Assembly: GCA_964349675.1 (NCBI GenBank)
Contig: CAYGHD010000004.1
Location: 1-54,387 of the forward strand
Length of the DNA: 54,387 nucleotides
Direction: 5' to 3'
Source of the DNA: an uncultured Candidatus Saccharibacteria bacterium
GTDB taxonomy: Bacteria; Patescibacteriota; Minisyncoccia; Phycocordibacterales; SBAW01
Under the pieces are notes generated by a model. That model saw only the letters and a list, made by a program, of their open reading frames with translations. It was not told the origin of the DNA and made no database searches. The translations under genes were made by a program, and so were the position numbers. Shown here one piece after another: positions 8,803-51,209 of the stretch (positions within the stretch are counted from its first letter, which is position 1; the number at the start of each line of letters is the position of its first letter).

Positions 8803-8836
8803 TTACAAAGGTCGCATCTCCGGAACTGTGGATAAC
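8803..8836. repeat. REP-like repeat, left copy (ttacaaaggtcgcatctccggaactgtggataac)
   Basis: Exact reverse complement of 9592..9625 (34/34). Confidence 0.9.
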
Positions 8837-9522
8837 CCGCCATACTCCCGTCCAGCTTTGTACCACCAAAAAAGACTATCGAGATCATTCTGCCGTAATA
8901 AAAAATCTGGAGAGGCGTGTAGGGAAAGGAGATTCCTTTGGGGCCGAAGCTCACTTTGATGAGTATAGTCTCTAAAACTACTAAACGGATAGTCTTCTAC
9001 AAACTTTTTAGATTGCATAGACGGCGCGGACTTTTTGTCTTTCCATCCGTATTCGACTATATCAAGCGGATTTAAATGTACATATGCAAATAAGTACCGG
9101 AAGTATGCTTCGTTATCAACATGCCTACTTTTAAAACGGCCCTGGAACAAAACTCCGCTGTGTGAATGTTTAAGATTAAAATACATCGCATATCCCACCC
9201 CAATACGCTTCATATACAAAGTGATACCGTTTTCTACTTTCTGACGCAACACAAGATGGATATGATTTGGCATCAAAGAGTAAGCCAGAACGTCGACGAG
9301 CGATTTATCTGTCTCTTCATGTGTAAAAACATCCAACATTGAACGACTTTCATACTTCCCCAGCAAATCCCTGATATTTATTGGCGCCGTGTTATTTGCC
9401 AAAAACAGCAACAATAAAAAACGGTGGTAATCTTTCTCTTCTATAAAAACGTCGCGCTTGTGGGCACCACGATTAAACACATGGTATGTCTCGCCCGCAA
9501 CCAACGGAGCGTCCCTGCTCAT
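8803..9522 (-). CDS. IS200-like Y1 (HUH) transposase / REP-associated tyrosine transposase (RAYT)-like
   Basis: 239 aa with YHVFNRGAHKRDVF and the HUH motif MPNHIHLV. The catalytic-Tyr region is FRYLFAYVHLNP. The last roughly 11 codons lie inside the flanking repeat. Confidence 0.85.
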   Translation of the reverse strand: MSRDAPLVAGETYHVFNRGAHKRDVFIEEKDYHRFLLLLFLANNTAPINIRDLLGKYESRSMLDVFTHEETDKSLVDVLAYSLMPNHIHLVLRQKVENGITLYMKRIGVGYAMYFNLKHSHSGVLFQGRFKSRHVDNEAYFRYLFAYVHLNPLDIVEYGWKDKKSAPSMQSKKFVEDYPFSSFRDYTHQSELRPQRNLLSLHASPDFLLRQNDLDSLFWWYKAGREYGGLSTVPEMRPL

Positions 9523-12560: not shown

Positions 12561-15500
12561 TTAGAAGTTGACCGAACGAGTACCAAGGGTAATCGGCAAG
12601 GTCTTCACAAGGTAGTCATCTGTCCAGTCAGACGTAGACTCGCTGTGAACGGTGCTGATCGATGAGCGATCTGTCCAGCCGAACGATGGAGTTGAAGCCA
12701 CTGTATCTGCTGCGACACCGGTTGCTGTGCCTGTGGTGATCGACGTAGAAGGGTTTGCGATGCTGACGCTAACCGAGTTTGCACCCGATGCGATGCCGCC
12801 AACCGTTCCGCGAAGCTCGTAGGTTCGTGACGAACCTGCGGTTACCTGCTGTTCGCTGTCTGCAACGAAGGTAAGGTTACCGCTAGTTGCACCAGAGAGG
12901 GAGTCACCACCGGGAATTGCACCGGTAGTTGTACCGAATACACCCGCAACTGATACTGCTGAGCCGCTCGTAATGTCCCAGAGCTTAATGGTCGAAGTTG
13001 CGCCGAGCGTAATTGCTGCGGTTTTGTTGACGGTGAAAGAAATTTTCTTCCAGCCAATATCACCTGAATTATCAGCTGACACTTTTACGCGACCAAGCAC
13101 CTGGTCAGAACCTGCTTGCAGCGTTGTGCTGTCGAGCGCAACTGCTGAAAGGGTTGCAATAGACTTGCGGACATACAGAGTACCTTTGCCGCTGGTTGCA
13201 GCTGAGTTTAGGTCAGATGCGCTGAGCGAGGTGTCTGCCGTGCCTGAAGAGTCTGTTGCGTTGAAGCCTTCACCTGCATCCAAGAGTACCGAGATAGCTG
13301 CACCAGTTGATGCGCCAGACGCGATAGTTGGGATACTGACGTAGACATCGAGGTCGCGGTCAGTGTTTTCTGGGATGTAGAAGGTAAGACCGGTGAAGGT
13401 AGACGTTGCGTGGGTCTGGCCTGCTCCTGTAGAGAGCGCCACTGCCTGTGTCGCGGTCTGCTCAGCACCGTTTATGTCTTTGTATTTCAGCATGACGCTT
13501 GATACAGAAGTTGCTGCGTTTGCAGGGATTTTAACAGCGACTTTGTCTACTGTGTATCCAGAGTACTGTGTCGTAAAGCGGAACGAACCAACTTTAACTG
13601 ACGTTGCACCTGCAACTACGTTTGCAGCATCTGGAGTAGAACCAGTGTTGACAGCTGCGGTAAGCACTGCGCTACCGATGGTGATGGTCTGCAGGGTTGC
13701 TGCAGTACCAACGCTCACTGAGTTACCAGTGATAGATGCGGTACCGGTTGTGTTTGTCGTAACTGTTGTTGCTGGAATTGCACCAGCTGAAGCATCAGTC
13801 TTCACATTTGCGTACACATCAATGGTCTTTGTACCAGACGCTGGAATGTTAATGCTTACAGAAAACGCGTTGGTTGTACCAACTGTCGACTTTGCTGTAC
13901 CTATTACGGCATTACCGTTTGTAGGATCTTTAAGCACGAGGTCTGAGATGAGTGAACTCACAGCTGACCCGAAGCCAATTTCGATTGTATTGACGTTCAC
14001 TCCTTCGGTAGAACCGCCAGAGAGTACGAACGAACCGATCTTAGCGTTTTGTGAGCCAGCAATGATGGTCTGGTTACCATAGCCTGAAGCCTTTGTCGCA
14101 GTGAGCGAAGCAGAAGCAACGGTGATGGTGTTACCAGAGACAGTACCGGTAGGGACGTTCACGCTTGAGAGCGAGATCTGACCCTGACCGTTCTGAGAAC
14201 CTGCAGTCAATGAAACAGCTACTGTTTCAGTGTTTGAGAGGTTTGTTGAAGTTGAAGTCTTCGCATCTGCGTAGATGTCAACAGTTGCGACAGTGCCAGC
14301 CTTGAGGATCATTGATGAACCGAATGTGAAGTTCACATCAGTTGCCTCAACGAGGTCCTTTGTAGAGCCGATCTGCACACCATTGAGAAATACTTTACCG
14401 TTGTCGAGACCACCGTTATGCACAGAGGTGTTGACGTTAACGTTCAGACTCTCAACTTTTACATCTTCACCGTTCGCAAGGAACTTGAAGGATGCCCACT
14501 TAACATTTGAAGCGCCAACTGACACGTTTTGCGTTGGAGAGTCCGACGCGCGGGTGATTGAAGGAGCTGATGTTGAGATAGAGTTGATTGTTGCTGAAGT
14601 TGCGGTGCGAGGTGAGAAGGTTGTACCGGCTGCAGTTGGGAGCACTGGCTGGTTAAGGTCAGTGTCTACCATGATTGCATCAGATGGGTAGCGCAGCGAC
14701 AAGCTGAAAGTGCGTGATGCACCGCCAACTACGTCTGCAAGTACTTTCACCACACGACCGCCAGTCTCAATACGAACTGGAGAAGCTGAGAGGTCGAAGG
14801 TGACTATGCTATTTGCGTCAACTGTTGCAACTGCTGAGCCAACCTGCACGCCGTCTACATAGAGGCGGAAGTTGCGGACATCACCAGTTTGGATAGAACC
14901 GATGTTGCGGAGTGCGAATGACTTCATAGTCACTGCGCGCGTACCGACAGTGATGTTGTTCTGCCAAACAGTATAGTCAGCTTGTGGGTCAACGGTGCTT
15001 ACAGAAGGAAGCGTTGATGTGTTGAAGTCAACTGTCGCAAGCGTTGCGGCAGATACTGACTGCAAACCGCCGTTGATTGGGAAGGACACAGAAGAGTCAA
15101 GTGCTCCTGATGCGCCAACTGAAACCAACTGAACGCCGATCTGCTGACCAGAGGTTGAACCTGCAATGTCAGAGCGTACAGACACAGTGTATGTGCTGCC
15201 AGCTGGGACAGTGAAGAGACCTACTGGGTTGCTGTAGTTGAATGCCGAGTTGCTGACGCCAGCTGAGTCGGTCAAACGAACTGCACCATTGTAGATGTAC
15301 ACGTTCGTCATTGTTGAGTCGTTAGAAACACCAATGCGCTTGAACGCGAGGTTAGTAACTACAACTGACGCAGATGTTGGGTTAGCAAAAGTGAACTTTG
15401 CGAGCTCACCTGCTGCCTGACCCTGCACGAGCGAAACGTTTACTGGTGAGTCAGATGCGAGCATGACTTTGAGGCCATTGCCCGTAACTGGAGTACCTGG

Positions 15501-33326: not shown

Positions 33327-34817
33327 TTATTCTCCGACCCATATTTGAACGCTGCTCGTCCCCTGCCCAGTCGCGTACAAGCGGCCGCGCTCGTAGTCAA
33401 ACCCACCAACCATAGCGCCTAACACTGAGTGCAGCGACTCTGTTGAAAAAGCGCTGCCGTAGTTCCATATCTGAAGCTCTTTGGTAACTTTTGAGGTAAG
33501 GAGGAAAACACGCGAGTGCATCGCTATGAGCCCCATAACTCCGGTGTTGATATCTTGAGATGCAAGTTCATGTAGCCCCGCAGTTGGGTTGGTGGCGGAA
33601 AATAGGTATACATCTGGACCATTTGGAGTAGAAGCTCTTCCAACATAGAGTGCATCGCCGAGCATGCAGATACTTTGTGCATTTTGACTCCCAGGAAGGT
33701 CGACTGTTGCGGCAAGCACCTCACTCACAGAGCCTTGTTCAGGAACATCCGTAACATCGAATACGCGCACCTCGCTGTGGAGTTGACTGGTCGCAGTATA
33801 CAAAAAACGTTTCCGCACTCCCTGTATAATCTGCTCTTGAACCGCAAGCGCATTTATTGTGGCGCCCACTTCAAAGCCAGATCCAAGCTCTGTTGGAAAA
33901 TTTGGATCGGACACGTCAAAGACGTGAAGCTCGGGACCTGCTGTATATTTGGTCGTCATGTACACCCGCGGCGCATAGTATACAAGCCGGTGACCCATCG
34001 GCTCCGAGCCCGTAGTACTCACGTTGCGCAGCGAGCGACGCGCTATGGTGACGGGGTTGTGTATATCAGTAACATCAATGACATGCAACTGTTCTTGCGA
34101 AGCGTTTAGTGCGGCATATACATAGGTCCTCATGTCCCCGTCAGTGTCGCGCTGCTGCACTACATCTAAAAACACAATGTGTTCGGGGAGTGAAAAATTA
34201 TTTTCAAATGATACAAAAGAGAGCGCATCTCCAGCGTGTACGGCTCGCGTATTGCTGATAAACAAATATGGGGCTACAGAGCCTCCCATGTATATCACCC
34301 CATCAAGTACATCTATCGCGGTTGGTTTGCCCAAGGGTAATGTCCCTTGTGCTAAAACCGCTGGTCGGGACCAATCGCCAAGATCCGCAGCAGTCTCACA
34401 ATCCCCTCCTAAAGCTAGAAGTTTTTGAACATCATACACTGTTGTCCTGATAGACAGATTTCGTGGACGCAAAGCACCCTCAACCCAGGCAACGCTACTT
34501 GTTGCAGACACAGCACAAGGCGCATCAGCGTGTAATTCCATTCGTCGCGTATAGGTTGTCGACGCGATTGTCATTACTTCAGAAGCATCTTCTATGCTAG
34601 CGACTCGAGCGACCCTCATTGTATACAGAGCGTGCGCGGACAGCTGCAGCGCTTGGTTTTTGGCGCGAGCGCCATATGAGACAAGCATTCCTCCAAATAC
34701 TATTTCTGCAGCGATGGAAATGCTCATAACTAACAGGGCAAAAGCAATGAGTACCTCAATGGTGCTGAACCCTTGTGCACGCGCTTGCAAACTACCAGAG
34801 AATAGTCCCTTCTTCAT
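33327..34817 (-). CDS. Large pseudopilin with LVIVD-repeat beta-propeller-like domain
   Basis: 496 aa with the prepilin N-terminus AQGFSTIEVLIAFALLVMSISIAA. Repeated motifs are LHVIDVTDIHNPV, LHVFDVSDPNFPT, VRVFDVTDVPEQG and LQIWNYG. Confidence 0.8.
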   Translation of the reverse strand: MKKGLFSGSLQARAQGFSTIEVLIAFALLVMSISIAAEIVFGGMLVSYGARAKNQALQLSAHALYTMRVARVASIEDASEVMTIASTTYTRRMELHADAPCAVSATSSVAWVEGALRPRNLSIRTTVYDVQKLLALGGDCETAADLGDWSRPAVLAQGTLPLGKPTAIDVLDGVIYMGGSVAPYLFISNTRAVHAGDALSFVSFENNFSLPEHIVFLDVVQQRDTDGDMRTYVYAALNASQEQLHVIDVTDIHNPVTIARRSLRNVSTTGSEPMGHRLVYYAPRVYMTTKYTAGPELHVFDVSDPNFPTELGSGFEVGATINALAVQEQIIQGVRKRFLYTATSQLHSEVRVFDVTDVPEQGSVSEVLAATVDLPGSQNAQSICMLGDALYVGRASTPNGPDVYLFSATNPTAGLHELASQDINTGVMGLIAMHSRVFLLTSKVTKELQIWNYGSAFSTESLHSVLGAMVGGFDYERGRLYATGQGTSSVQIWVGE

Positions 34818-37663: not shown

Positions 37664-38242
37664 TTAGAGACCGGTAGCACCAAGCGACTCGTTGATAGCG
37701 CGGATGAGCACTGTGCGCGAGCGCGCTGCCGCTGCAGCCAGCTCCATTGAAAAAAAATCTTGTTCTAAAAAAGGACGTATCTCAGCAGTCTGCGGCAAGT
37801 AGCCTAAGTGAGACAGAATGCGCAAAACCAATACGCATTCAATATGTTCGGCTTCTTCATCACTACTTTTTGCTAAATACTGTAGCCCCTGAGAAACAGT
37901 CGCATATAATTCCGGCACCGACTCTTCCCCATGGATGAGGCGCGTAAGCAACCGCGCAACGCGCCCCACCGCACGCCGGCGCAGTGGCGAGTCGGCACTA
38001 TGAACACGCGAAAGATCTTGCACCCCAACGAGCTTCCATTCAAATACGCCGCGCACTAAAGAAAACCTGCCAGACGTGAGCGGCTCTAACCCATATCGTA
38101 ATTTTGATTTTGCCAAGCGCGCACTCCGCGCAGAAGCACGTATCAACCCCAAATCATCGCTTAAAAGTGATACGAGCGTGTTTGCTTCACCAACCCCCCG
38201 CTTGCCAAGCACAATGGCGTCTATCACAACAATTTTATGCAT
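37664..38242 (-). CDS. recO: DNA repair protein RecO
   Basis: The ORF 37664..38389 is trimmed to M50 (MHKIVVIDAIVLGKRGVGEANTLVSLLSDDLGLIRASARSAR...). It has a RecO-like OB N-terminus and overlaps the ileS stop by 8 nt. Confidence 0.75.
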   Translation of the reverse strand: MHKIVVIDAIVLGKRGVGEANTLVSLLSDDLGLIRASARSARLAKSKLRYGLEPLTSGRFSLVRGVFEWKLVGVQDLSRVHSADSPLRRRAVGRVARLLTRLIHGEESVPELYATVSQGLQYLAKSSDEEAEHIECVLVLRILSHLGYLPQTAEIRPFLEQDFFSMELAAAAARSRTVLIRAINESLGATGL

Positions 38243-41200
38243 GGATATCCAACCCTCCAAGACCAGTTGCGGCAATAATCTCATTCTGGAACTTGCGTGC
38301 AACCACAGCTTCCTCTGGAGAGACAGTGAGCGTATGTGTTGGTCTGTCAGCAATTTGTAGACCTGATTTTTTGCGCCACTCCTGCACACGGCGGATTAAG
38401 TCTCTCAGCACCCCCTCTTCTTTCAGCGCTGGAGTCATGGCTGTGTCGAGCCACACAACATCGACCGTTTCATCTTGAAGCACTTCTTTGACATTCAATT
38501 CATCAACGATAAGTGCTTGAAGCCCCGGGTCTTTTGGCAGTGTCTTTGCTTTGAGTGTTTGGAGCGGCTGCCGCACTTTTATCCCCGCCTTTTCACGCAA
38601 CTCCAACCCGCGCGAACAAATTGTACGCACTTGCTCCATGTCTTGAAGCAACACTTGGTCTACAACGGGAGCTTTTGGCCAAACGGAAAGGTGTACACTC
38701 TCTGGATCTGCTTCAGCACGCAAGCGGCGGTACAGGTCATCTGCAAAAAATGGCATCGTGGGCGCCATCACCTGCGCCACCGTACAGAGCACTTGCCGCA
38801 GAGTCTGAAGCGCAGCGTCTTTATCTTTGCCATCTGTTTTAAACCGATCACGAGAACGGCGTATATACCACGTAGACAAATCATCGATAAAATTTGCGAG
38901 CGGACGTGTTGCCTCATCGAGCTCGTATTTTTCAAACCCTTGTGTCGTGTCACGCACCAACTCGCCCATTCGAGACATGATCCATGCATCTAGCGGGTGT
39001 GTTGTATGTTTTGCGCTCAATGCTTTGGCCTGCGCAACAGGCGCTCCTACAGCGGACTCTGCAGGCGCATAGAGGTCATAAAAACTCCTCACGTTGTCTA
39101 GCCGCATTAAGAGTTTTTTTGCAACTTCCTCCACCCCGCGCGCAGAGAAACGCACATCCTCGCCACGAATCACTGGAGAAGAGAGTAAATAGTAACGCAG
39201 CGCATCGACTCCAAATTGGTCAACCAGCTCCATAGGATCGGGATAATTTTTTAGACGCTTACTCATCTTTTGTCCGTCTTGAGCGAGTAATTGCCCATTC
39301 GTTATTACCGCCTTGTATGGGCTTTTCCCAAAAAGTGCCGTACCCAAAACAATCAACGAGTAAAACCATCCGCGCGTCTGATCGATACCTTCAGCGATAA
39401 AATCGGCTGGGTACCCTTTTGGCAGTAGGCCGAGAAACCGCTTTGGATCAAAAATGCCTTTACGAAATGGGTAGTGATTTGACGCAAATGGCATCGACCC
39501 TGACTCAAACCAACAGTCGAATACGTCGCTCACACGCTTCCATTCTCCACTCAATGGGTCACCCAGCGTGATTGCGTCTATATACGGACGATGCAGGTCG
39601 AGCTCAAAATTTTCATTGTGCGGATACGGCGTGAAAGACAGTTTTTGCCATTGCCCTGTTTTAAACAAGTTTCCACCATGTGGCTGAGCTACCAAGTCTG
39701 GCATAAGCGTGCGGGAGGTAATTTCGGTGAGCAGCCATGCGCCGACCCCGTGCGTCACAAGCAACACCCGCTTGCCTGAATAACGCTTGTCGATATCAAA
39801 AATAAAATCAGCCACGCGGTTGCGCACTTGCGCGTAGGTCTCTCCGCCAACAGCGGCTGTATTAAACTTGTCTGACAAGGTAGCGAACAGTGCCTCCCAT
39901 TCGGGTAGCGGTGCGCCGTTTTTATCTCCAAAATGCACCTCAACCAAACGCGTATCAGTCATGATGACTGAGTGCGGCAAACCCAACTCATCGCACACCA
40001 GACGCGCTGTTTCTTGCGCACGTAGCAATGGTGACGCAACCACCATATCTATTTTTTGCGATTTAAGCTTGCGCGCAGAAGCACGCACCTCGGCTTGACC
40101 TTTGTGGGTAAGATGGTTCTCGACGGTATCATCTGAATTAGCAAAACCTTCTACATTGCTTCGCGCCTCCCCATGCCGCATAACGATATACTCGTTCCCT
40201 GACCGACGAGACATTGCCAACAAATCCTCAACGGACCCGACTACTTTTATCTCTTTTGTTTTACTGTGTCTCCAAACAGGGATAGGTGCCCCCCAGTAGC
40301 GGCTACGAGAAATTGCCCAATCTGGCGCATTTTGCAGCAGATTGTTAAAACGACCAGAACCTACACGATCTGGAACCCAATGTACTTTTGTATTTTGTGC
40401 GAGCAGTTTGCTTTTTATCGATGAAACTTTTACAAACCATGAGTTTGCTGCCCAATTAAGCAGCGGGGTGTCGCAACGCCAACAATGTGGGTAGGAATGC
40501 CTGATCTTTTCCTGTCGGAAAAGCCTCCCCCGCTGCTCTAAATTTTCAGCAATTTTTGCGTCAGTTTCCATATGCCGACCTTTTGGCTTTACCGGCAAAT
40601 GAGCGAAGTCCGCAACCGTTGCAACAAATTTACCGTCATCAGTGACATGATGAATGAGTGGTATCTTCTCTTTCTGTGCAAGCTCCAAATCTTCAGCACC
40701 GTACGCTGGGGCTAGGTGGACAATACCAGTACCGTCTTGCAATGTTACATACGGCGCAGCGTACACGCGCCATGCATGTGTCTTGTGCTTGTGTATTGTG
40801 TCGACAAAATAGTCAAACGGTGGAGTGTAGCGCTTGCCTACTAAATCTTTACCAAGAATTTCGCCGTATATTTTTAAATCTTCGCCCAACACTTTTTGCG
40901 CCAAGTCTTTTGCTACAACCACAAAACCACCGTCCGTGCGCACTTTAACGTATGTAGCTTGTGCGTTTACAGCAACCGCAACATTGCCAGGAAGTGTCCA
41001 CGGCGTCGTGGTCCAAATCAGCAATGAGGTCTCAGGCTCATCGACAAGCGGCATCTTTACGGTCACGGCAATATCGTCGATATCTTGGTACCCTTGGGCT
41101 ACCTCAAAATTTGAAAGCGTTGTGCCACAGCGCGGACACAGATGCATCGCTTTAAAGCCCTCGTACACTAACCCTTTATCGTACAGACTTTTAAATGCCC

Positions 41201-41735
41201 ACCACACACTCTCTGTATATGAGGAGTCCATGGTCTTATAGTCTTGCTCCATGTCTGCCCAACGACCCATACGGGGGATAATCCGCTTCCAGTCGGCGAC
41301 ATCCTTCATGATGCTTGTGCGGGCAGCAGCGTTGAACTTTTCGATACCGTATTCTTCAATATCACGCTTGGTTTTAAACCCAAGCTCTTTTTCTACCAAG
41401 TTCTCAACGGGGAGTCCGTGACAGTCCCACCCCCATTGCCTGGCAACACGGTAACCCTGCATCGTGCGGTAACGCGGGATCGCGTCTTTGAGCGCGCTTT
41501 GTAATATATGTCCGTAGTGCGGCAAACCGTTTGCAAACGGCGGCCCATCATAAAAAACATACTCTCCTTTTGGAGCCTTCTTTTGCAGTGTTTTTTCAAA
41601 AATATTGTTAGCCTGCCAAAAAGCGAGTATTGCTTCTTCGCGCTCAGCGAGCGGGCTCTTTGAACCCACTTCTGGCCCACGATGCTGCTCTTCCCCACCC
41701 TGCTTTGGTGAATCCATATCTAGAGAATATAGCAC
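38235..41735 (-). CDS. ileS: Isoleucine--tRNA ligase (type 2/eukaryote-like) carrying an internal histidine-phosphatase-like insertion
   Basis: 1166 aa with the HIGH motif PHYGH, CP1 editing-domain motifs (TTTPWTLPGN) and DWAISRSRYWGAPIPVW. The KMSKS motif is KMSKRL. The insertion at residues about 514-708 carries RHGE, SPLLRAQETA and VTHG. Confidence 0.95.
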   Translation of the reverse strand: MLYSLDMDSPKQGGEEQHRGPEVGSKSPLAEREEAILAFWQANNIFEKTLQKKAPKGEYVFYDGPPFANGLPHYGHILQSALKDAIPRYRTMQGYRVARQWGWDCHGLPVENLVEKELGFKTKRDIEEYGIEKFNAAARTSIMKDVADWKRIIPRMGRWADMEQDYKTMDSSYTESVWWAFKSLYDKGLVYEGFKAMHLCPRCGTTLSNFEVAQGYQDIDDIAVTVKMPLVDEPETSLLIWTTTPWTLPGNVAVAVNAQATYVKVRTDGGFVVVAKDLAQKVLGEDLKIYGEILGKDLVGKRYTPPFDYFVDTIHKHKTHAWRVYAAPYVTLQDGTGIVHLAPAYGAEDLELAQKEKIPLIHHVTDDGKFVATVADFAHLPVKPKGRHMETDAKIAENLEQRGRLFRQEKIRHSYPHCWRCDTPLLNWAANSWFVKVSSIKSKLLAQNTKVHWVPDRVGSGRFNNLLQNAPDWAISRSRYWGAPIPVWRHSKTKEIKVVGSVEDLLAMSRRSGNEYIVMRHGEARSNVEGFANSDDTVENHLTHKGQAEVRASARKLKSQKIDMVVASPLLRAQETARLVCDELGLPHSVIMTDTRLVEVHFGDKNGAPLPEWEALFATLSDKFNTAAVGGETYAQVRNRVADFIFDIDKRYSGKRVLLVTHGVGAWLLTEITSRTLMPDLVAQPHGGNLFKTGQWQKLSFTPYPHNENFELDLHRPYIDAITLGDPLSGEWKRVSDVFDCWFESGSMPFASNHYPFRKGIFDPKRFLGLLPKGYPADFIAEGIDQTRGWFYSLIVLGTALFGKSPYKAVITNGQLLAQDGQKMSKRLKNYPDPMELVDQFGVDALRYYLLSSPVIRGEDVRFSARGVEEVAKKLLMRLDNVRSFYDLYAPAESAVGAPVAQAKALSAKHTTHPLDAWIMSRMGELVRDTTQGFEKYELDEATRPLANFIDDLSTWYIRRSRDRFKTDGKDKDAALQTLRQVLCTVAQVMAPTMPFFADDLYRRLRAEADPESVHLSVWPKAPVVDQVLLQDMEQVRTICSRGLELREKAGIKVRQPLQTLKAKTLPKDPGLQALIVDELNVKEVLQDETVDVVWLDTAMTPALKEEGVLRDLIRRVQEWRKKSGLQIADRPTHTLTVSPEEAVVARKFQNEIIAATGLGGLDIHA

Positions 41736-44641: not shown

Positions 44642-45910
44642 TTACACAAACGAGTCTGGGATTGGGAATTCGGCGCAAAGTTTTTTAATTTCTTGATGTA
44701 CTGTAGCAAGTGCTGCAGCATCTGTGCGTTTTTGCAGCGCTTGGAGCATCAGCTCTGCCACGCGAGCGCTTTCCTTTTCGGCAAACCCACGGGTGGTAAT
44801 GGCTGGCGTACCGAAGCGAATTCCTGAAGGATCCATTGGGCTGCGCGAATCATCCGCGATGACATTTTTATTAAGGGTGATACCAACGGTATCTAACACT
44901 TCTTCAGCCTCTTTTCCGGGCACGCCCAATGACCCAAACACATCTGCCAAGATAAGATGATTGGAGGTGCCACCACCAAGCATGCGGACGTTATTTGCAC
45001 GAAACACTGCTTCCATTGCTTTGGCGTTTTTGAGGATCTGCGCAGCGTATGTTTGAAAGTTTGGATGCAGCGCCTCGCCAAAAGAAACTGCTTTTGCAGC
45101 AACGACGTGCATGAGCGGCCCGCCTTGAAGGCCTGGGAACACTGCTTTGTCTATTTTTTTTGCAAGCTCTTCGCTCTCTCGCGTCAAAATCATTCCTCCG
45201 CGAGGGCCGCGTAGCGTCTTATGCGTCGTTGTCGTCATCACATCAAAACCATAGTCAAAAGGATTTTTGGCAGCCTTGCCCGCAATCAACCCTGCAATGT
45301 GTGCAGCGTCCATAACGGCATATGCGCCAACCTCTCGCGCAATAGCAACAAACTTTTCATAGTCGAGTTCACGCGAATATGCAGAAAAACCAGCGAGTAC
45401 GATTTTCGGCTTCGTCTCTTTTGCAACGCGCAACATGTCGTCATAGTCAATCTCACCTGTTTCTGCGTCCTTCATTTTGTATCGCACAAAGTTAAAAAAC
45501 TTGGTGATATAGGTCACCGGGTGGCCGTGGGTTAGATGCCCCCCGTGAGACAAGTCCATACCAAGCACCGTATCGCCAGGCTGCAATAGCGCAAAATACA
45601 TACCTACGTTTGCATTTGCACCTGAATGCGGCTGTACGTTTGCAAACTGTGCTCCAAAAAGTTTTTTCGCCCGTTCAATCGCCAACTCTTCCGCCTTGTC
45701 CGTATATGTTTGGCCACCGTAGTATCGTTTATGCGGATATCCTTCGGAATATTTATTGGTGAGGATAGACCCTTGCGCCTCGCGCACTGCCCTAGACACG
45801 TAATTTTCAGACGGGATAAGTTCTAGTCCCTCACGCTCTCTTGTTTCCTCCCCTTCAATAACCGCGAATAGTTCTTTGTCTTGTTTTTCAATAGCGTCGT
45901 ATGAGTGCAT
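44642..45910 (-). CDS. glyA: Serine hydroxymethyltransferase
   Basis: 422 aa with ELIPSENYVS, GYPHKRYYGG, LSHGGHLTHG and the PLP-Lys motif TTTTHKTLRGPRGG. Confidence 0.97.
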   Translation of the reverse strand: MHSYDAIEKQDKELFAVIEGEETREREGLELIPSENYVSRAVREAQGSILTNKYSEGYPHKRYYGGQTYTDKAEELAIERAKKLFGAQFANVQPHSGANANVGMYFALLQPGDTVLGMDLSHGGHLTHGHPVTYITKFFNFVRYKMKDAETGEIDYDDMLRVAKETKPKIVLAGFSAYSRELDYEKFVAIAREVGAYAVMDAAHIAGLIAGKAAKNPFDYGFDVMTTTTHKTLRGPRGGMILTRESEELAKKIDKAVFPGLQGGPLMHVVAAKAVSFGEALHPNFQTYAAQILKNAKAMEAVFRANNVRMLGGGTSNHLILADVFGSLGVPGKEAEEVLDTVGITLNKNVIADDSRSPMDPSGIRFGTPAITTRGFAEKESARVAELMLQALQKRTDAAALATVHQEIKKLCAEFPIPDSFV

Positions 45911-46062: not shown

Positions 46063-46764
46063 TTACCGTGGAAGATGTCTCCGGACAATTCCCCAGATTT
46101 TCTCATGTATCTCCTCGCGCGGCAAAATAGCGTCTTTATGAGCGCAAGTAACCTTTTGCCAATTATTGTGTGCCTTAACCAGCTTGAGCGCCCCCTCTTG
46201 CGCGTTAAGCAAGTAACGAGTATCACTTTCGACCGTATCCTTTGCCATCCCCTTCCCTAGATACGTCTTTTTTTTAGTTGCGCTTTTTTTTGATAACAAT
46301 TGAAGTGATATTTCCAGTGGCAAATGGAGACACAAAATAAGGTCGGGCCGGGGCAGCCCAAACACACCATACTCCATCTGATCGAGCCAGGTCAAAAAAG
46401 CTTTCCGTGCACGCGCGTCGCGGATTTTGCCGCCCTGATGCATTTGGTTTGCACTGACGTAACGGTCGAGCACCACCACCTTGCCTTCGCGCAACCACTT
46501 TTCTATTTTTCCCTTCGATTCAAACCTGTCGGCCGCATACAGCACCGAGGCGATGTGGGGGTCGAGCGCGACAAAGTTGCCGTACTTGCCTGCCAAACAT
46601 CCTCCCACTAACTTGCCAAAAAAATTGCTCTCGTATTGTGGGAAGTCGAGTGTCGCCACCGGGATTTTTTCTTTCCGGAGCCGCTCCACCAGCAACTTCG
46701 TTTGCGTAGCCTTCCCCACCCCGTCGGAGCCATCAATAACAATCAATTTTCCTTTGTATTTCAT
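46063..46764 (-). CDS. tmk: dTMP kinase (thymidylate kinase)
   Basis: 233 aa with the P-loop IVIDGSDGVGKATQ, the DRY-like motif VLDRYVSAN and a LID region. Confidence 0.9.
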   Translation of the reverse strand: MKYKGKLIVIDGSDGVGKATQTKLLVERLRKEKIPVATLDFPQYESNFFGKLVGGCLAGKYGNFVALDPHIASVLYAADRFESKGKIEKWLREGKVVVLDRYVSANQMHQGGKIRDARARKAFLTWLDQMEYGVFGLPRPDLILCLHLPLEISLQLLSKKSATKKKTYLGKGMAKDTVESDTRYLLNAQEGALKLVKAHNNWQKVTCAHKDAILPREEIHEKIWGIVRRHLPR

Positions 46765-46779
46765 AAAAATACCGGCAGC

Positions 46780-47265
46780 TTATGCAAACTGCCGGCCAAT
46801 AATATTATCCGGATGATCCCGGTTAAACAATCTCTCACTTCCTTCTACAGCAAAAACATCAGTGATGCCTGCGGCAATAATCGCCTCCCAGCAAGACTCG
46901 CACGCCCACCAATGACCCCACAGGTAGAGACTCGCGCCAGCAAGCTGATGCCCTTTTGCGGTGGCATTGGTAATTGCGCGCAGCTCGCTGTGATTTTTGG
47001 GGTGGCATCCCTCACACAGATCATATCTTTGCCCCGTCGGCACTCCTTGCTGCACACGCTCACAAATATGAGTTTTGTGATAGTCGCTCCCATTTGCACC
47101 CCAACCCAGCACAACACCATCCAACACTACCACCGAGCCCATGGGCATGGTTGTATCGAGAGAATGCTCGCGAGCATGTGCTTTTGCCGCAACCATATGC
47201 GGATGCTCGGCAGATACATACTTGATATGGCGGTTTTTGGGGATATATGGATACGTGATGCTCAT
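46780..47265 (-). CDS. dCMP deaminase-like cytidine/deoxycytidylate deaminase (zinc-binding)
   Basis: The ORF 46780..47421 is trimmed to M53 (MSITYPY...) with AAGGAAAGGGA upstream. Zinc/catalytic motifs are HSELRAI (a variant of H-A-E) and WWACESCWEAI (CxxC). An extra C...C pair (CEGCHPKNHSE) is typical of dCMP deaminases. Confidence 0.8.
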   Translation of the reverse strand: MSITYPYIPKNRHIKYVSAEHPHMVAAKAHAREHSLDTTMPMGSVVVLDGVVLGWGANGSDYHKTHICERVQQGVPTGQRYDLCEGCHPKNHSELRAITNATAKGHQLAGASLYLWGHWWACESCWEAIIAAGITDVFAVEGSERLFNRDHPDNIIGRQFA

Positions 47266-47316
47266 GGTAGTTCCCTTTCCTTGGCATTTATACCATACGT
47301 GCAAAAAAGCTCTATC

Positions 47317-47345
47317 TTGTAGCCGCCCCTCCCTACCCCTATAAT
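47317..47345 (+). promoter_or_regulatory. Sigma70-like promoter TTGTAG-17 nt-TATAAT, 7 nt upstream of the thyA-like ATG
   Basis: TTGTAG lies at 47317-47322 and TATAAT at 47340-47345. The ATG is at 47353, with no Shine-Dalgarno sequence. Confidence 0.55.
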
Positions 47346-47352
47346 TGGCCCC

Positions 47353-48189
47353 ATGGCTACCTTCGACCGAATCTACCAGGGACTCCTCGGTCAAATCCTT
47401 AAAAATGGAGTGCGCGAGCAATCAGAGCGCACCAAACACGAAACAACAGCGCTTCCTGGGCTTCATTTTTCAATCGACATAGAAAAAGAGGGATTCCCCT
47501 TACTTACGTTGCGCAAAATTCCAATCCAAATGTTTGTGGCAGAGCAGATATGGTTTGTCGCCGGCACCCGAAAACCCGCTGACTTTTTAAGAGAGTACAC
47601 AAAAGTATGGGACAGCTTTACTAACCCCGGCGACGTGGTCACCGTTGCCTATGGGTACCGGTGGCGAAAACATTTCGGCCGCGACCAACTCGGCAAACTT
47701 ATTGATTTGTTAAAAAAAGAGCCGAGTTCGCGCCACGGAGTTGTTATTACATGGGACCCTGCGACTGACGGATTGAGTTTGTTTAAGAAAAAAAACGTTC
47801 CCTGCCCCTACTCGTTTACCGTCAATATTATTGGCGGGAGACTTCACCTACACAATATCGTCCGATCGAACGACATGGTGCTGGGGTTCCCTTCTGATGT
47901 TGCGGGATTTGCCCTGCTCCAATGCATGTTGGCCCAAAAACTAGGCGTGCGAGTTGGTGTGTATTCACATTCTATTTCAAATGCACATGTCTATGACAAC
48001 CAATATGCGGCAGTAAAAGAATTACTCAAGCGCAAAAGCAGCCACAAACCAATTCAGGTGACTATGCCAAAGAATGCATTTGATCGGGCAGAGAAGAAAG
48101 ACCGGAAGTTGGTGGATGAACTGGTGTCGAGCTTTAAAGAGCAATACCAGCCACTCCCTGCAATTTCAGGGCTTCAGATTGTTTTATAA
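47353..48189 (+). CDS. Thymidylate synthase (ThyA) family pyrimidine-nucleotide C5 methylase/hydroxymethylase; Asp at the Asn177-equivalent position
   Basis: 278 aa. It aligns without gaps to my recollection of E. coli ThyA from the catalytic Cys onward: PCPYSF...RSNDMVLGFPSDVAGFALL versus PCHAFF...RSCDVFLGLPFNIASYALL. Arg166, Ser167, Asp169, His207 and Tyr209 equivalents are conserved, and Asn177 is replaced by Asp. Confidence 0.85.
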   Translation: MATFDRIYQGLLGQILKNGVREQSERTKHETTALPGLHFSIDIEKEGFPLLTLRKIPIQMFVAEQIWFVAGTRKPADFLREYTKVWDSFTNPGDVVTVAYGYRWRKHFGRDQLGKLIDLLKKEPSSRHGVVITWDPATDGLSLFKKKNVPCPYSFTVNIIGGRLHLHNIVRSNDMVLGFPSDVAGFALLQCMLAQKLGVRVGVYSHSISNAHVYDNQYAAVKELLKRKSSHKPIQVTMPKNAFDRAEKKDRKLVDELVSSFKEQYQPLPAISGLQIVL

Positions 48190-48201
48190 TTCATTTCACT
48201 T

Positions 48202-48843
48202 ATGACCATCCTTACTAAAAAAGAAATACTAGAACGCGTCGAGAGTGGGAGTATTGGTATTAACCCAAGCCTCGACAGCTTTCAACTCCAGATGCATGCG
48301 ATAGATCTGCGCTTGGGTTTTACCTTTCTTATTCCCAAAGCATGGCGCATGACCGACCAAGGTCGAGAGGCACTGAGTATTGACCCGCTGCGCGACCACG
48401 GACCCGAATACTTTGACGTAATTGAGCTTGAGCAAGGACAACACTTTGACCTGTTGCCCGAGGAGTATGTGCTTGTGTCGAGCTTTGAAACAATAAAAAT
48501 CCCCAATGATCTCATGGCGATCCTCTATCCTCGCTCATCGGTTAACCGCAAAGGACTCTCGGTCGACCTTACCGGCATTATTGATTCTGGATATGAAGGG
48601 CCGCTTACGCTCCCGATACGTAACAATACGAGCTCACAGGTTATCCAGCTCCATCCGGGTGAGCGGTTTTGCCAAATCGTCTTTGAAGAATTAGCCCATG
48701 CGGTGGAGCCGCGCAAAAGCCGCTGGCATCAGAAAGATGTTGTTGATAAAGGCAAGAAAGAAAAATCGACAGAAATGAAGTTTGTATTCAATGGCGATAT
48801 CAAAAAACTCAAAAAAGACTTTGCGGTAACAAAAAAGCACTAA
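48202..48843 (+). CDS. dCTP deaminase/dUTPase-superfamily protein (Dcd-like fold, deaminase Glu not conserved)
   Basis: 213 aa with AIDLRLG, YPRSSVNRKGLSV and GIIDSGYEGPLTLPIRNNT. Where Dcd has ..L-E-(F/L).. this protein reads TLPI. Confidence 0.75.
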   Translation: MTILTKKEILERVESGSIGINPSLDSFQLQMHAIDLRLGFTFLIPKAWRMTDQGREALSIDPLRDHGPEYFDVIELEQGQHFDLLPEEYVLVSSFETIKIPNDLMAILYPRSSVNRKGLSVDLTGIIDSGYEGPLTLPIRNNTSSQVIQLHPGERFCQIVFEELAHAVEPRKSRWHQKDVVDKGKKEKSTEMKFVFNGDIKKLKKDFAVTKKH

Positions 48844-48845
48844 CC

Positions 48846-49358
48846 ATGGCACACCCACGAGTAAGTAGCATCGCTGCCATCGGCAAAAATAGAGAGCTCG
48901 GCCGCGGGAATGACTTATTGTGGCGCATCCCGGGTGACCTCAAGCAAATGCGGCAGCGCACCGAAGGACACACACTCATTATGGGGCGGAAAACATTCGA
49001 ATCTATTATCGAGGCGCGCAAAACCCCGCTCCCAAACCGCACGAGCATCGTTATTACACGCTCAACTGCTCACAACCCGAACTTCGATTTTCCAAATGTG
49101 ATTCTCGCGCACTCAATGGAAGATGCGCTGGCAAAGGCGCGAGCGGTTGAACCCGAAGAAATTTTTATCTTCGGTGGTGCACAAATATACGCAGAAGCGA
49201 TGCCGTTTGTAGACCGGCTCTATTTAACACTCATTGATGCCACAGAAAATGCGGATACCTTTTTCCCACCGTATGAACACCTATTTACCAGAAAAGTTTC
49301 AGAACAAAAAGAAGTTTGGGACGGGCTCGCATACACACTAGTAATTTTAGAAAAATAA
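48846..49358 (+). CDS. folA: Dihydrofolate reductase
   Basis: 170 aa with IAAIGKNRELGRGNDLLWRIPGDLKQMRQRTEGHTLIMGRKTFESI, FGGAQIY and LYLTLID. Confidence 0.93.
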   Translation: MAHPRVSSIAAIGKNRELGRGNDLLWRIPGDLKQMRQRTEGHTLIMGRKTFESIIEARKTPLPNRTSIVITRSTAHNPNFDFPNVILAHSMEDALAKARAVEPEEIFIFGGAQIYAEAMPFVDRLYLTLIDATENADTFFPPYEHLFTRKVSEQKEVWDGLAYTLVILEK

Positions 49359-49360
49359 TT

Positions 49361-50077
49361 ATGCATGTACACGCACTCCATACCCGACTGTTTATAGAGG
49401 GTGAGAATTTAGAAAAATTTATTATTGAACATGTGCCAACACTCAAGGATAAAGACATCCTTGTGGTGACTTCAAAAATAGTCGCACTTGCAGAAAACAG
49501 GACGGTTATTGCGACTGACCAAAAGAGCAAGGAGTCTTTGATTATAAAAGAAAGCGAGTGGGCAATGCCTACTAAGTATATCTGGATAAGTATTAAAGAT
49601 GGGATGATTATGGCAGCGGCCGGCATTGATGAATCCAACGCGGCCGGCAAGCTGATACTCCTTCCTAAAGACAGTTTTGCTGCCGCAGCTCGTCTACGCA
49701 CAGCCTTACGTAAACACTATCGGATAAAAAAGTTAGGCGTTATACTCACCGACAGTCGCGTATTGCCACTAAGAGCTGGTGTTGTTGGTGTTGCAGTTGG
49801 ATATGCCGGATTTCGTGGCGTCAAAGACTACCGCGGCACGGCAGATCTCTTCGGCAGAAAAATGCGCATGACCAAGGTCGATATCGCTGACAGCCTAGCC
49901 ACTGCAGCAGTATTGTTAATGGGAGAAGGTAAAGAACGTCGCCCGCTTGCAATAGCGAGTGACGCGGCAGTTGAATTTTGTGAACGCGTGTCTCGACATG
50001 AACTTGCTATTGCCCCGGAAGACGACCTGTATGCGCCTCTCTTCAAACATCTTGGCATCAAACCTAAACGCGTATGA
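49361..50077 (+). CDS. CofE-family gamma-glutamyl ligase (F420-0:glutamate ligase fold); possibly a FolC2-type folate glutamate ligase
   Basis: The ORF 49316..50077 is trimmed to M16 (MHVHALH...) and starts 2 nt after the folA stop. CofE-like blocks are KDILVVTSKIVALAENR, AAAGIDESNA, VILTDSRVLPLRAGVVGVAVGYAG and VDIADSLATAAVLLMGEGKERRPLA. Confidence 0.75.
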   Translation: MHVHALHTRLFIEGENLEKFIIEHVPTLKDKDILVVTSKIVALAENRTVIATDQKSKESLIIKESEWAMPTKYIWISIKDGMIMAAAGIDESNAAGKLILLPKDSFAAAARLRTALRKHYRIKKLGVILTDSRVLPLRAGVVGVAVGYAGFRGVKDYRGTADLFGRKMRMTKVDIADSLATAAVLLMGEGKERRPLAIASDAAVEFCERVSRHELAIAPEDDLYAPLFKHLGIKPKRV

Positions 50078-50143: not shown

Positions 50144-51154
50144 ATGAAAAAAGGAAAACCTGCCACACCGTTGGTCGGCACCATCTTCTCTAAAATTGCT
50201 CCGCATATAGGCGCGAAGGTATTGCTCGAACCCCAGTGGGGCATCGCGGGACAAATCACATTCCGGAGCGGACGCAAGCGGTACTTTCGATATTCAAGTA
50301 TCGACTTGAACACCCTTGGCGCATCAGAAATTGCAAAGGATAAAGACTATGCCAACTTCTTCATGAAAGGGATGGGCTACAAGACAGTACCCGGCAAAGT
50401 CTTTTTCTCTGATACTTGGGCGAAAGCAATTGAGTCAACCGACAATATTGATGGCGCATACGCATACGCACAGACAATCGGGTTGCCGGTCATTGTAAAG
50501 CCAAACAGCGGCAGCCAAGGCAAAGGTGTTGCGCTGGTACATACAAAACGCGAATTTTACCGAGCGATGCGGCGTATTTTTGCCATTGACCGCGTTGCGT
50601 TGGTACAACAGCCTGTATCGGGCAAAGACTATCGAGTAGTTGTTCTTGATGACAGAATTATTTCCGCGTATGAACGTGTCCCGCTCAACGTCGTCGGAGA
50701 CGGCCGGTCAACAATTAGACAGCTTTTAGCAAAAAAACAGCGAGCGTTTGCTGCAAGCAGCCGTGACACCGTTATCAAGCCAGCCGATTTGCGCATGGGA
50801 GCAAAACTGAAACGGGCGGGATTGACGATGGACACCGTCCCCCACAAAGCGCAGCGGGTATTTCTGCTCGACAACGCCAATCTTTCAACTGGTGGCGATT
50901 CTATCGATGTGACCGCAATGGTACACCCAGATTTCAAAAAAATCGCGGTGCAACTGACCCGCGACATGGGACTCAAACTTTGCGGCGTCGACCTTATGAT
51001 ACAAGGAGATATCTCTTTGCCTCCCAAAGAATGGTGGGTGCTTGAAATAAACTCTGCCCCTGGCCTCGACCATTACGCAAGCAGCGGCAAAGCGCAGCAA
51101 AAAATTGTCGAAGACATGTACTTGGAAGTGCTTAAAAGTATGGAGCACTCGTAG
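50144..51154 (+). CDS. ATP-grasp amino-acid ligase (cyanophycin-synthetase-N-domain / RimK-like)
   Basis: The ORF 50078..51154 is trimmed to M23 (MKKGKPATP...). Conserved blocks are LPVIVKPNSGSQGKGV, DYRVVVLD, NLSTGGDSIDVT, GLKLCGVDLM and VLEINSAPGL. Confidence 0.8.
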   Translation: MKKGKPATPLVGTIFSKIAPHIGAKVLLEPQWGIAGQITFRSGRKRYFRYSSIDLNTLGASEIAKDKDYANFFMKGMGYKTVPGKVFFSDTWAKAIESTDNIDGAYAYAQTIGLPVIVKPNSGSQGKGVALVHTKREFYRAMRRIFAIDRVALVQQPVSGKDYRVVVLDDRIISAYERVPLNVVGDGRSTIRQLLAKKQRAFAASSRDTVIKPADLRMGAKLKRAGLTMDTVPHKAQRVFLLDNANLSTGGDSIDVTAMVHPDFKKIAVQLTRDMGLKLCGVDLMIQGDISLPPKEWWVLEINSAPGLDHYASSGKAQQKIVEDMYLEVLKSMEHS

Positions 51155-51155
51155 C

Positions 51156-51195
51156 CACAACACAACAGCCCCCGAAAGGGAGCTGTTGTGTTGTG
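51156..51195. terminator. Long GC/AC hairpin between convergent genes (CACAACACAACAGC...GCTGTTGTGTTGTG)
   Basis: 14-bp perfect arms plus an inner CCC/GGG pairing. It has no clean U-tract, so a terminator function is inferred from position. Confidence 0.5.
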
Positions 51196-51209
51196 TATAT
51201 TGAGTATTT

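Follow-up and report, generated by a model that had tools for sequence, protein, structure and literature searches.

A candidate Xp12-type deoxycytidylate methylase at the center of a conserved operon in Paceibacteria

To our knowledge, the making of thymidylate from deoxyuridine monophosphate (dUMP) through ThyA or ThyX is regarded as universal among cells, and we know of no description of a dCMP-first route, in which deoxycytidine monophosphate (dCMP) is methylated and then deaminated, other than for phages with rewritten DNA. The classical example is phage Xp12, in which 5-methylcytosine (5mC) stands in for all C. Oxidation of the folate cofactor to dihydrofolate (DHF) accompanies reductive methylation only, hence the need for dihydrofolate reductase (DHFR). 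Here we describe a gene of the thymidylate synthase (TS) family at positions 47353-48189 of a 54,387-nt stretch of contig CAYGHD010000004.1 from an uncultured, ultra-small bacterium of the Patescibacteria (Candidatus Saccharibacteria); the whole stretch is referred to as the window. On balance, and from sequence comparison, we favor the reading that its product is an Xp12-type deoxycytidylate C5-methyltransferase and not a dUMP-dependent TS, and that it stands at the center of a conserved Paceibacteria (Parcubacteria) operon that would be a cellular, housekeeping version of the phage pathway.

In phages Xp12 and PaMx74, C is replaced by 5mC, and the Xp12 TS homolog and five metagenomic TSs with Asp in place of Asn at position 177 (E. 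coli ThyA numbering) make 5-methyldeoxycytidine (5mdC) in vivo (bioRxiv 10.1101/2024.12.05.627091). The same preprint found that one phage deaminase encoded in cis (mSCD-B5) converts 5-methyl-dCTP (5mdCTP) selectively to dTTP, proposed that 5mC phages bypass dUMP-dependent TS, and required a phage kinase for 5mdC to enter E. coli DNA in its assay. The Xp12 genes stand in a row of HAD hydrolase, TS, dCMP deaminase and DHFR, and the PaMx74 module consists of an NTP pyrophosphohydrolase, thyA, cd and frd. A published residue code for the superfamily connects Asp177 with dCMP as the substrate, an acidic residue at 143 with hydroxymethyl products (T4-like enzymes and MilA) and Asn169 with 5-hydroxy products, and Asn-to-Asp mutants at 177 switch to dCMP according to published work as quoted in the literature. 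In an independent metagenome-phenotype analysis, positions 147 and 177 were the two that best told TS genes on phage contigs with modified cytosine from those on unmodified ones (PMC8670742).

The gene in question is the following.

47353..48189, + strand: ThyA-superfamily enzyme with an Xp12-type dCMP-methylase active site; 278 aa, ATG start, TS-like C-terminal tail

Its product matches PF00303 (Thymidylat_synt) over residues 7-254 with an E-value of 6.8e-52 (176.7 bits against a cutoff of 24.3), and alignment of C151, R26, R127 and R171 places the catalytic Cys and the phosphate-binding Arg residues of the superfamily. An AlphaFold2 model with a pLDDT of 90.5 shows the TS fold over its full length, with TM scores of 0.8-0.85 to the E. 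coli and L. casei enzymes; the Protein Data Bank (PDB) holds no structure of an Xp12-type enzyme. An earlier note, made from the DNA letters alone, had aligned the protein without gaps to E. coli ThyA from the catalytic Cys onward and had read Asp at the position of Asn177. In phmmer searches of the PDB, alignments to three solved thymidylate synthases are likewise gap-free downstream of the Cys and set ‘gfpsDvagf’ on ‘gvpfNiasy’, and MAFFT alignment with E. coli ThyA equates C151 with C146, R171 with R166, S172 with S167, D174 with D169, D182 with N177, H212 with H207 and Y214 with Y209. The substitution is thus seen by both methods, the note's offsets from the Cys (+20, +21, +23 and +31) are exactly as it had counted them, and its assignment of a His and a Tyr to H207 and Y209 holds. 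Whether orthologs share the Asp, which the note had left as a check, has a uniform answer: all 81 do (80 species genomes and the window), as do 120/120 close homologs, which makes 200 orthologs with Asp and none without it, and Asp182 is therefore no sequencing accident. The TS-like C-terminal tail that the note had described is also retained, the protein ending ‘YQPLPAISGLQIVL’ and E. coli ThyA ‘YDPHPGIKAPVAI’, whereas T4 gp42 has no such tail.

The protein therefore lacks Asn177, the residue with which canonical ThyA reads the O4/N3-H edge of uracil, and the change is not solitary. Relative to E. coli ThyA, N177D occurs together with L143N, H147P, Q165V, W83F, R127H and F176S, so that the canonical lining of His147, Leu143, Gln165 and Trp83 is absent and Pro, Asn, Val and Phe stand at these positions. 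Over the shell of 12 residues within 6 Å of C5 of dUMP (positions listed in PMC13326640, NAR 2026), the protein is identical to the Xp12 enzyme at 10, PaMx74 at 9, T4 gp42 at 8 and E. coli ThyA at 6, the last being only the universally conserved residues. An exhaustive HMMER search yielded 136 alignable representatives of 50%-identity clusters, among which 118 carry Asp177, most of them with P147 and F83 as well, and 16 carry Asn177 with the classical W/R/C/H pattern (15 with His147 and 1 with Cys). Among the proteins used for the tree described below, N143 is found in 111 of 122 Asp-type members, and the Asn-type members have L143 (15/15) and H147 (14/15). The combination of Asp177, N143, P147, a hydrophobic residue at 165 and D169 is that of the Xp12 type, and from it we strongly expect that the substrate is dCMP.

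The same residues bear on the product. D174, the equivalent of D169, is kept in 81/81 orthologs where a 5-hydroxy-dCMP synthase of the RB69 or DLP3 type would have Asn169, and the enzyme is therefore not expected to belong to that class. Nor does it have the acidic residue 143 of T4-type hydroxymethylases and MilA, the missing tail of gp42, or Ala167 together with Lys; it has N143, the tail and Ser167. Because N143 and D169 are as in Xp12 and PaMx74, the tail is TS-like and the gene is linked to folA and glyA, we hold with good confidence that, given dCMP as the substrate, the predicted product is the methylated one. In favor of a dCMP hydroxymethylase or hydroxylase, making 5-hydroxymethyl-dCMP or 5-hydroxy-dCMP, the protein shares Asp177 and 8 of the 12 shell residues with T4 gp42, and the large Asp-type family certainly includes hydroxymethylases. 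We nevertheless consider this very unlikely: residue 143 is Asn as in Xp12 and not Asp or Glu, residue 169 is Asp and not Asn, the tail is retained, linkage to DHFR would be purposeless for a reaction that releases tetrahydrofolate, and neither a glycosyltransferase nor a carbamoyltransferase was found among the operon genes or the other scanned open reading frames (ORFs) of the window.

Phylogenetic placement agrees with the active site. When the protein was searched by tblastn against 50,697 phage genomes, the top matches included Xp12, PaMx74 and phages related to them, at about 33% identity and E-values of 1e-39 to 1e-47. In a neighbor-joining tree of TS-family proteins (137 taxa, 269 columns, 100 bootstraps), one split with 79% bootstrap support gathers 120 proteins, all with Asp177 and including those of the window, Xp12 and PaMx74, and sets them apart from 17 others, namely T4 gp42, a single remaining protein with Asp177 and the 15 proteins of the Asn type, to which E. 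coli ThyA belongs. The proteins of the candidate phyla radiation (CPR) form a clade with 100% bootstrap support. The tree does not resolve deep branching within the Asp-type clade. The alignment and phylogeny with which the earlier note had proposed to place the protein thus put it in an all-Asp clade with Xp12 and PaMx74, away from Asn-type ThyA.

Scores against family models are mixed. Against TIGR03284 (cutoff 108 bits) the window protein scores 122, the Xp12 and PaMx74 enzymes 99.6 and 100.4, and E. coli ThyA 455; against NF002497 it reaches 140 where the cutoff is 327, and it falls likewise far under the cutoffs of the other NCBIfam ThyA models. Annotation pipelines label the protein ‘thymidylate synthase’ by a narrow margin because of the TIGR03284 score. 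The fallback of the earlier note, a divergent but genuine dUMP-dependent TS, would take this label at face value: the neighboring deaminase would convert dCMP to dUMP, the DCD-like protein encoded downstream would be an archaeal-type dUTPase yielding dUMP from dUTP, and a protonated Asp would read uracil. The TIGR03284 cutoff is indeed cleared, if only just, but the score lies near those of Xp12 and PaMx74 and far from that of E. coli ThyA, and the other ThyA cutoffs are widely missed. Moreover, cytosine nucleotides are the substrates of all characterized family members with Asp at 177, mutation of the Asn to Asp shifts activity to dCMP, and four further active-site changes covary with the Asp, whereas the Asn-type proteins of the tree all keep L143 and, with one exception, H147. 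What the gene context says of this fallback is best seen from the genes themselves.

44642..45910, - strand: serine hydroxymethyltransferase (SHMT), glyA; PF00464, E 7e-149
46063..46764, - strand: thymidylate-kinase-family (Tmk-like) kinase; PF02223, E 5e-19
46780..47265, - strand: zinc deaminase of the dCMP-deaminase family, 161 aa; PF00383, E 6e-10
47266..47352, no strand: divergent intergenic region between the deaminase and TS genes, 87 bp, with TATAAT at 47340-47345
48202..48843, + strand: DCD/dUTPase-fold (DCD-like) protein, ‘dCTP deaminase’ by database; PF22769, E 1e-34; TIGR02274, 111 bits against a cutoff of 92.8
48846..49358, + strand: DHFR, folA; PF00186, E 4e-43
49361..50077, + strand: CofE-like gamma-glutamyl ligase; PF01996, E 2e-41; TIGR04132, 198 bits against a cutoff of 350; gene call in the related contig L092
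50144..51154, + strand: ATP-grasp ligase, similar to cyanophycin synthetase and GshAB ligase domains

The earlier note had placed folA immediately downstream of the TS gene, but the gene for the DCD-like protein intervenes. This protein has Pro at the position of the catalytic Glu of the B. halodurans and M. tuberculosis dCTP deaminases (PDB 4xjc and 2qlp; ‘GYEGPLTLPIRNN’ vs ‘GFNGQITLELFN’), a residue numbered E138 in the E. coli and E129 in the M. tuberculosis enzyme. Of 74 orthologs, at least 95% have this Pro. Despite a TIGR02274 score over the cutoff, the protein therefore lacks the catalytic Glu of a dCTP deaminase, and deamination is not expected of it. The dUTPase-type motifs PRSS and IIDSGYEG (IDSGY.G) and the Gln of motif 4 are kept, and we take the protein to be probably a pyrophosphatase of dCTP, dUTP or both that would supply the monophosphate.

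The divergently encoded deaminase has H-x-E and C-x-x-C zinc motifs, both invariant in orthologs, and a second Cys/His cluster. A profile of its orthologs matched solved dCMP deaminases in the PDB, those of S. mutans (2hvv, E 1.4e-8) and cyanophage S-TIM5 (4p9c, E 1.2e-7), and reached T4 cd and human DCTD (1vq2 and 2w4l) as well; phmmer with the single sequence found nothing in the PDB, so that all these matches come from the ortholog profile. Together, the zinc motifs and the profile similarity identify it as belonging to the dCMP-deaminase family. The note had seen meaning in its ‘HSE’ in place of HAE, but orthologs have either S or A in the middle of this motif, and the Ser is therefore not informative. 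We propose that this protein is a deaminase of 5-methyl-dC nucleotides, and it seems to us probable that it would turn the product of the TS-family enzyme into thymidylate.

The Tmk-like kinase falls under the cutoffs for dTMP kinases (NF005923, 116 against 193; TIGR00041, 64.9 against 83.25) and has the lowest conservation in the cluster, with a median identity of 41%; dTMP and 5-methyl-dCMP are its candidate substrates. On the folate side, TIGR04132 describes a ‘putative folate metabolism gamma-glutamate ligase’, and the CofE-like protein is a putative enzyme of folate polyglutamylation. The ATP-grasp ligase is possibly another ligase that adds glutamate to folate, and the two together may provide a polyglutamylation of salvaged folate that does not use FolC. 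In contig L092, a 498-bp segment (13797-14294) that contains folB, the gene for dihydroneopterin aldolase, follows the ATP-grasp gene where the window has 61 bp (51149-51209), so that folB beside the folate cluster is a strain-level difference of presence and absence.

In the pathway that we propose, dCTP from ribonucleotide reduction or salvage would be converted to dCMP by the Glu-less DCD-like enzyme, which would perhaps take dUTP too. Cys151 of the TS homolog would attack C6 of dCMP while the N3/N4 edge of the cytosine is read or protonated by Asp182, V170 and P152 leaving the pocket non-polar and free of His; the methylene group of 5,10-methylenetetrahydrofolate (CH2-THF) would be transferred and then reduced by a hydride from the cofactor, giving 5-methyl-dCMP and releasing DHF. 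DHFR, SHMT and the glutamate ligases would regenerate polyglutamylated CH2-THF, the deaminase, acting on either the mono- or the triphosphate, would turn the methylated nucleotide of cytosine into one of thymine, and the Tmk-like kinase would phosphorylate the resulting monophosphate. The steps would then run as pyrophosphate removal, methylation and deamination, where the classical route has deamination, pyrophosphate removal and methylation, and through this reordering thymidylate would be made without dUMP. Every substrate and product in this scheme is a prediction from sequence, as are the phosphorylation level at which the deaminase would act and the role of the operon as the only thymidylate route of the cell.

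The phage and viral relatives contain the same activities in several arrangements. Two natural fusions among metagenomic proteins, P0138 (dCMP-family deaminase with Asp-type TS, 433 aa) and P0169 (MazG/PRA-PH-type NTP pyrophosphohydrolase with Asp-type TS, 424 aa), lend Rosetta-stone support to a joint function of the three activities. The nearest relatives of the TS protein beyond the CPR clade lie on viral or phage-like contigs at 43-56% identity, and most of these viral Asp-type TS genes adjoin a deaminase of the CPR subfamily (29-36% identity; hhalign gives a probability of 99.2 between the deaminase of viral contig L090 and that of CPR). The TS proteins of the nearest viral relatives, which often show this arrangement, are at 47-56% identity. 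L090 and another such contig, L100, have in addition a DCD-like gene whose product shares the Pro and the C-terminal LKKDFA motif of the CPR protein, and some viral relatives have a classical dUTPase in its place. A unit of Asp-type TS, deaminase and pyrophosphatase is thus a known phage device, and what would be new is that a large lineage of cells has it on the chromosome as a conserved ‘thymidylate operon’. As a separate matter of origin, we rejected a recent wholesale transfer of the module from an Xp12-like phage, since the deaminases are dissimilar by BLASTP and the DHFRs of the window and Xp12 are only 26% identical.

We scanned one genome per GTDB species; 328 genomes had a relative, and the best 80 of them were used to count synteny. 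These 80, at 68-89% identity, all belong to the Parcubacteria/Paceibacteria group of Patescibacteria, and their lineages include Kaiser-, Adler-, Nomura-, Taylor-, Campbell-, Colwell-, Vogel- and Doudnabacteria. The divergent deaminase gene lies beside the TS gene in 78 of the 80 loci, and in 76 the gene directly downstream is the DCD-like one. SHMT occurs in 66 loci, DHFR in 51 (no more than about 3 kb downstream of the TS gene) and an adjacent Tmk-like gene in 34, and where a gene is missing the contig often ends. The DCD-like and TS proteins, with median identities to the window of 76% and 73%, are more conserved than SHMT (65%). Linkage to DHFR and to a predicted cytosine-nucleotide deaminase, as in the Xp12 and PaMx74 loci, is thus present in the window and in many of these genomes.

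The surroundings are those of a cellular chromosome, with genes for FtsK, RecA, EF-P, S6, L11, NusG and the Met-, Ile- and Arg-tRNA synthetases, and a 547-kb JGI contig (Ga0376277_0000096) matches the window at 98.5% identity. That the nearest relatives outside the CPR clade are on viral or phage-like contigs might suggest that the gene is carried by a prophage or mobile element and plays no part in the metabolism of the host. We find this barely credible, given that the synteny of glyA, tmk and folA is the same across the 80 species genomes and many Paceibacteria lineages, that identity is high (68-89%), that the flanking genes are housekeeping ones (for the Arg- and Ile-tRNA synthetases, L11 and NusG), and that no phage structural or integrase genes occur nearby. 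An origin as a prophage or mobile island was rejected on account of the conserved housekeeping synteny.

The active-site signature, the phylogenetic placement, the linkage and conservation of the genes and the loss of the catalytic Glu from the DCD-like protein are observations, and several other observations weigh against reading them as a dCMP-first pathway. The neighborhood of a dCMP-family deaminase, a dUTPase-fold pyrophosphatase, DHFR, SHMT and Tmk suits the classical dUMP route equally well. N143 is neither the bulky hydrophobic nor the acidic residue of the published methyl/hydroxymethyl rule, and the methyl call therefore rests on identity to Xp12 and PaMx74 and on the linkage to DHFR. 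mSCD-B5 acts on 5mdCTP and not on the monophosphate, which would put 5mdCTP into the nucleotide pool. BLASTP detects no similarity between the window and Xp12 deaminases, and DHFR is not in the fetched flanks of 29/80 loci, partly since contigs end.

Because the classical route needs the same gene set, context alone does not discriminate between the two routes, and only the active-site signature does. The gene context therefore fits the fallback of a divergent true TS, as do the dUTPase-type motifs of the DCD-like protein and the classical dUTPase found at that place in some viral relatives, but the five-residue signature, which the protein has in common with proven dCMP methylases, contradicts it strongly, and we regard the fallback as a minority view and improbable. 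The reading that the earlier note preferred, a reductive dCMP methylase that produces DHF and whose 5-methyl-dCMP goes to DNA or to dTMP, draws support from the signature, the clade, the phage matches, the residue code and the gene linkage.

As to a second thymidylate route, tblastn with a T. maritima ThyX query found nothing in the window and the 80 loci (1.25 Mb), a result of little weight since all of these loci are centered on the TS gene. COG0207 (thyA) is among the Parcubacteria core genes in a table of Nelson & Stegen 2015, and thyX is not in that table. In the literature on CPR/Patescibacteria we found no report of an Asp-type ThyA, dCMP methylation or 5mC substitution, the gene being treated as an ordinary thyA.

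The methylase reading leaves room for a role closer to that in phages, in which 5mdCTP would fill the pool and 5mC would replace much or all of the C in the cell's own DNA. The DCD-like protein would then be a dCTPase and the Tmk-like protein a 5-methyl-dCMP kinase, and the deaminase would divert some 5mdCTP to dTTP. The activities are of the same kind as in the Xp12 and PaMx74 modules, the sole characterized in-cis deaminase uses 5mdCTP, the kinase scores below the dTMP-kinase cutoffs, and the DCD-like protein is predicted to have lost deamination while keeping its hydrolysis motifs. This would, however, be extraordinary and without cellular precedent. The window has about 49% G+C and no sign of the C-to-T decay that might appear in an all-5mC genome lacking dedicated repair, which is a weak argument. 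A phage kinase was needed in the E. coli assay, and no more than 34/80 loci have a Tmk-like gene next to the TS gene. Overall we consider a 5mC genome doubtful, and the dCMP-first housekeeping pathway remains the reading that we prefer.

The boldest form of the idea extends the argument by analogy to the whole group: Paceibacteria/Parcubacteria, in at least 328 GTDB species genomes, would have no dUMP-dependent TS, would run a 5-methyl-dC nucleotide pathway of the phage type, would hold 5mdCTP in the pool as Xp12 and PaMx74 do, and would use 5mC for much or all of the chromosomal C. We regard it as a long shot, and if true it would be the first case of wholesale base substitution in a cellular genome. 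The preferred reading has consequences of its own. If the operon works as proposed, a large and abundant bacterial lineage would make its thymine nucleotides without dUMP, by a pathway that may have been domesticated from phages or may be ancestral to theirs. In thousands of CPR genomes, the labels ‘thyA’, ‘dcd’ and ‘dCMP deaminase’ would need rereading, and metabolic models of these symbionts would be affected in their folate dependence, their handling of dUTP and uracil and their expected sensitivity to 5-fluorouracil and antifolates. Their DNA might carry 5mC not placed by a DNA methyltransferase, and methylome-sequencing technology could draw on cells as a new source of dCMP methylases and of deaminases selective for 5mC.

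Several further features of the window were observed. The perfect TATAAT in the divergent intergenic region, which we read directly from the sequence, precedes the TS start codon by 7 nt, no Shine-Dalgarno sequence intervenes, and the TS-DCD-folA transcript may be leaderless. A consensus scan of the window for promoters and terminators gave results at chance level and did not report this TATAAT because it has no -35 match. An 11-bp G+C-rich hairpin followed by a T-run (46771-46796, - strand) overlaps the 3′ end of the deaminase gene and suggests that the deaminase is transcribed alone, apart from tmk. Rfam and tRNA scans of the window gave zero matches. The isoleucyl-tRNA synthetase (38235-41735, - strand, 1166 aa) has a PF00300 histidine-phosphatase insert at residues 517-667 (E 8e-30) that splits the halves of its catalytic domain, and the related contigs L092 and L093 have the same architecture. 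Elsewhere in the window there are an ORF for an IS200-like Y1 transposase (8803-9522, - strand) and two ORFs of 873 and 496 aa with no Pfam match (5500-8121 and 33327-34817, both - strand).

Compared with the described systems, the enzyme resembles those of Xp12 and PaMx74 (PaMx74 ThyA) most closely. They share the ThyA fold, the C5 shell (10/12 positions with Xp12) including N143, P147 and D177, F83 and the tail, and with Xp12 there is 33% overall identity and long identical motifs (AYGYRWR.HFGRDQ and KNVPCP.SFT). The Xp12 module, too, has a neighboring deaminase, a DHFR and a nucleotide (pyro)phosphohydrolase. Unlike its Xp12 counterpart, the window gene is chromosomal, in a cellular lineage and apparently of a housekeeping kind; the pyrophosphatase partner is a Glu-less DCD fold instead of MazG or HAD, the deaminase is of another subfamily, SHMT, Tmk and folate glutamate ligases are linked as well, and R127 is His. 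The DCD-like partner itself shares with Dcd, DCD-DUT and the Dcd-fold dUTPases their fold, PRSS, IDxGYxG and the motif-4 Gln. ThyA (EC 2.1.1.45) has in common with the window enzyme the fold, the catalytic Cys, R21, E58, W80, Y94, R126, R166, S167, D169, H207, Y209, the C-terminal tail, the coupling to DHFR and SHMT and probably the same reductive chemistry, whereas the predicted substrate of the window enzyme is dCMP. T4 gp42, MilA and the RB69-type enzymes likewise have Asp177, a non-His residue after the catalytic Cys and a hydrophobic residue at the position of Q165, but differ in having Asp or Glu at 143 (hydroxymethylases) or Asn169 (hydroxylases) and, in gp42, no tail; in contrast to MilA, the window protein also keeps Ser167, a residue tied to deoxyribose preference. 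From these likenesses the enzyme is best filed as a putative new, cellular member of the Xp12-type dCMP methyltransferases, and the operon as a putative new, housekeeping form of the phage 5mC/dTTP module.

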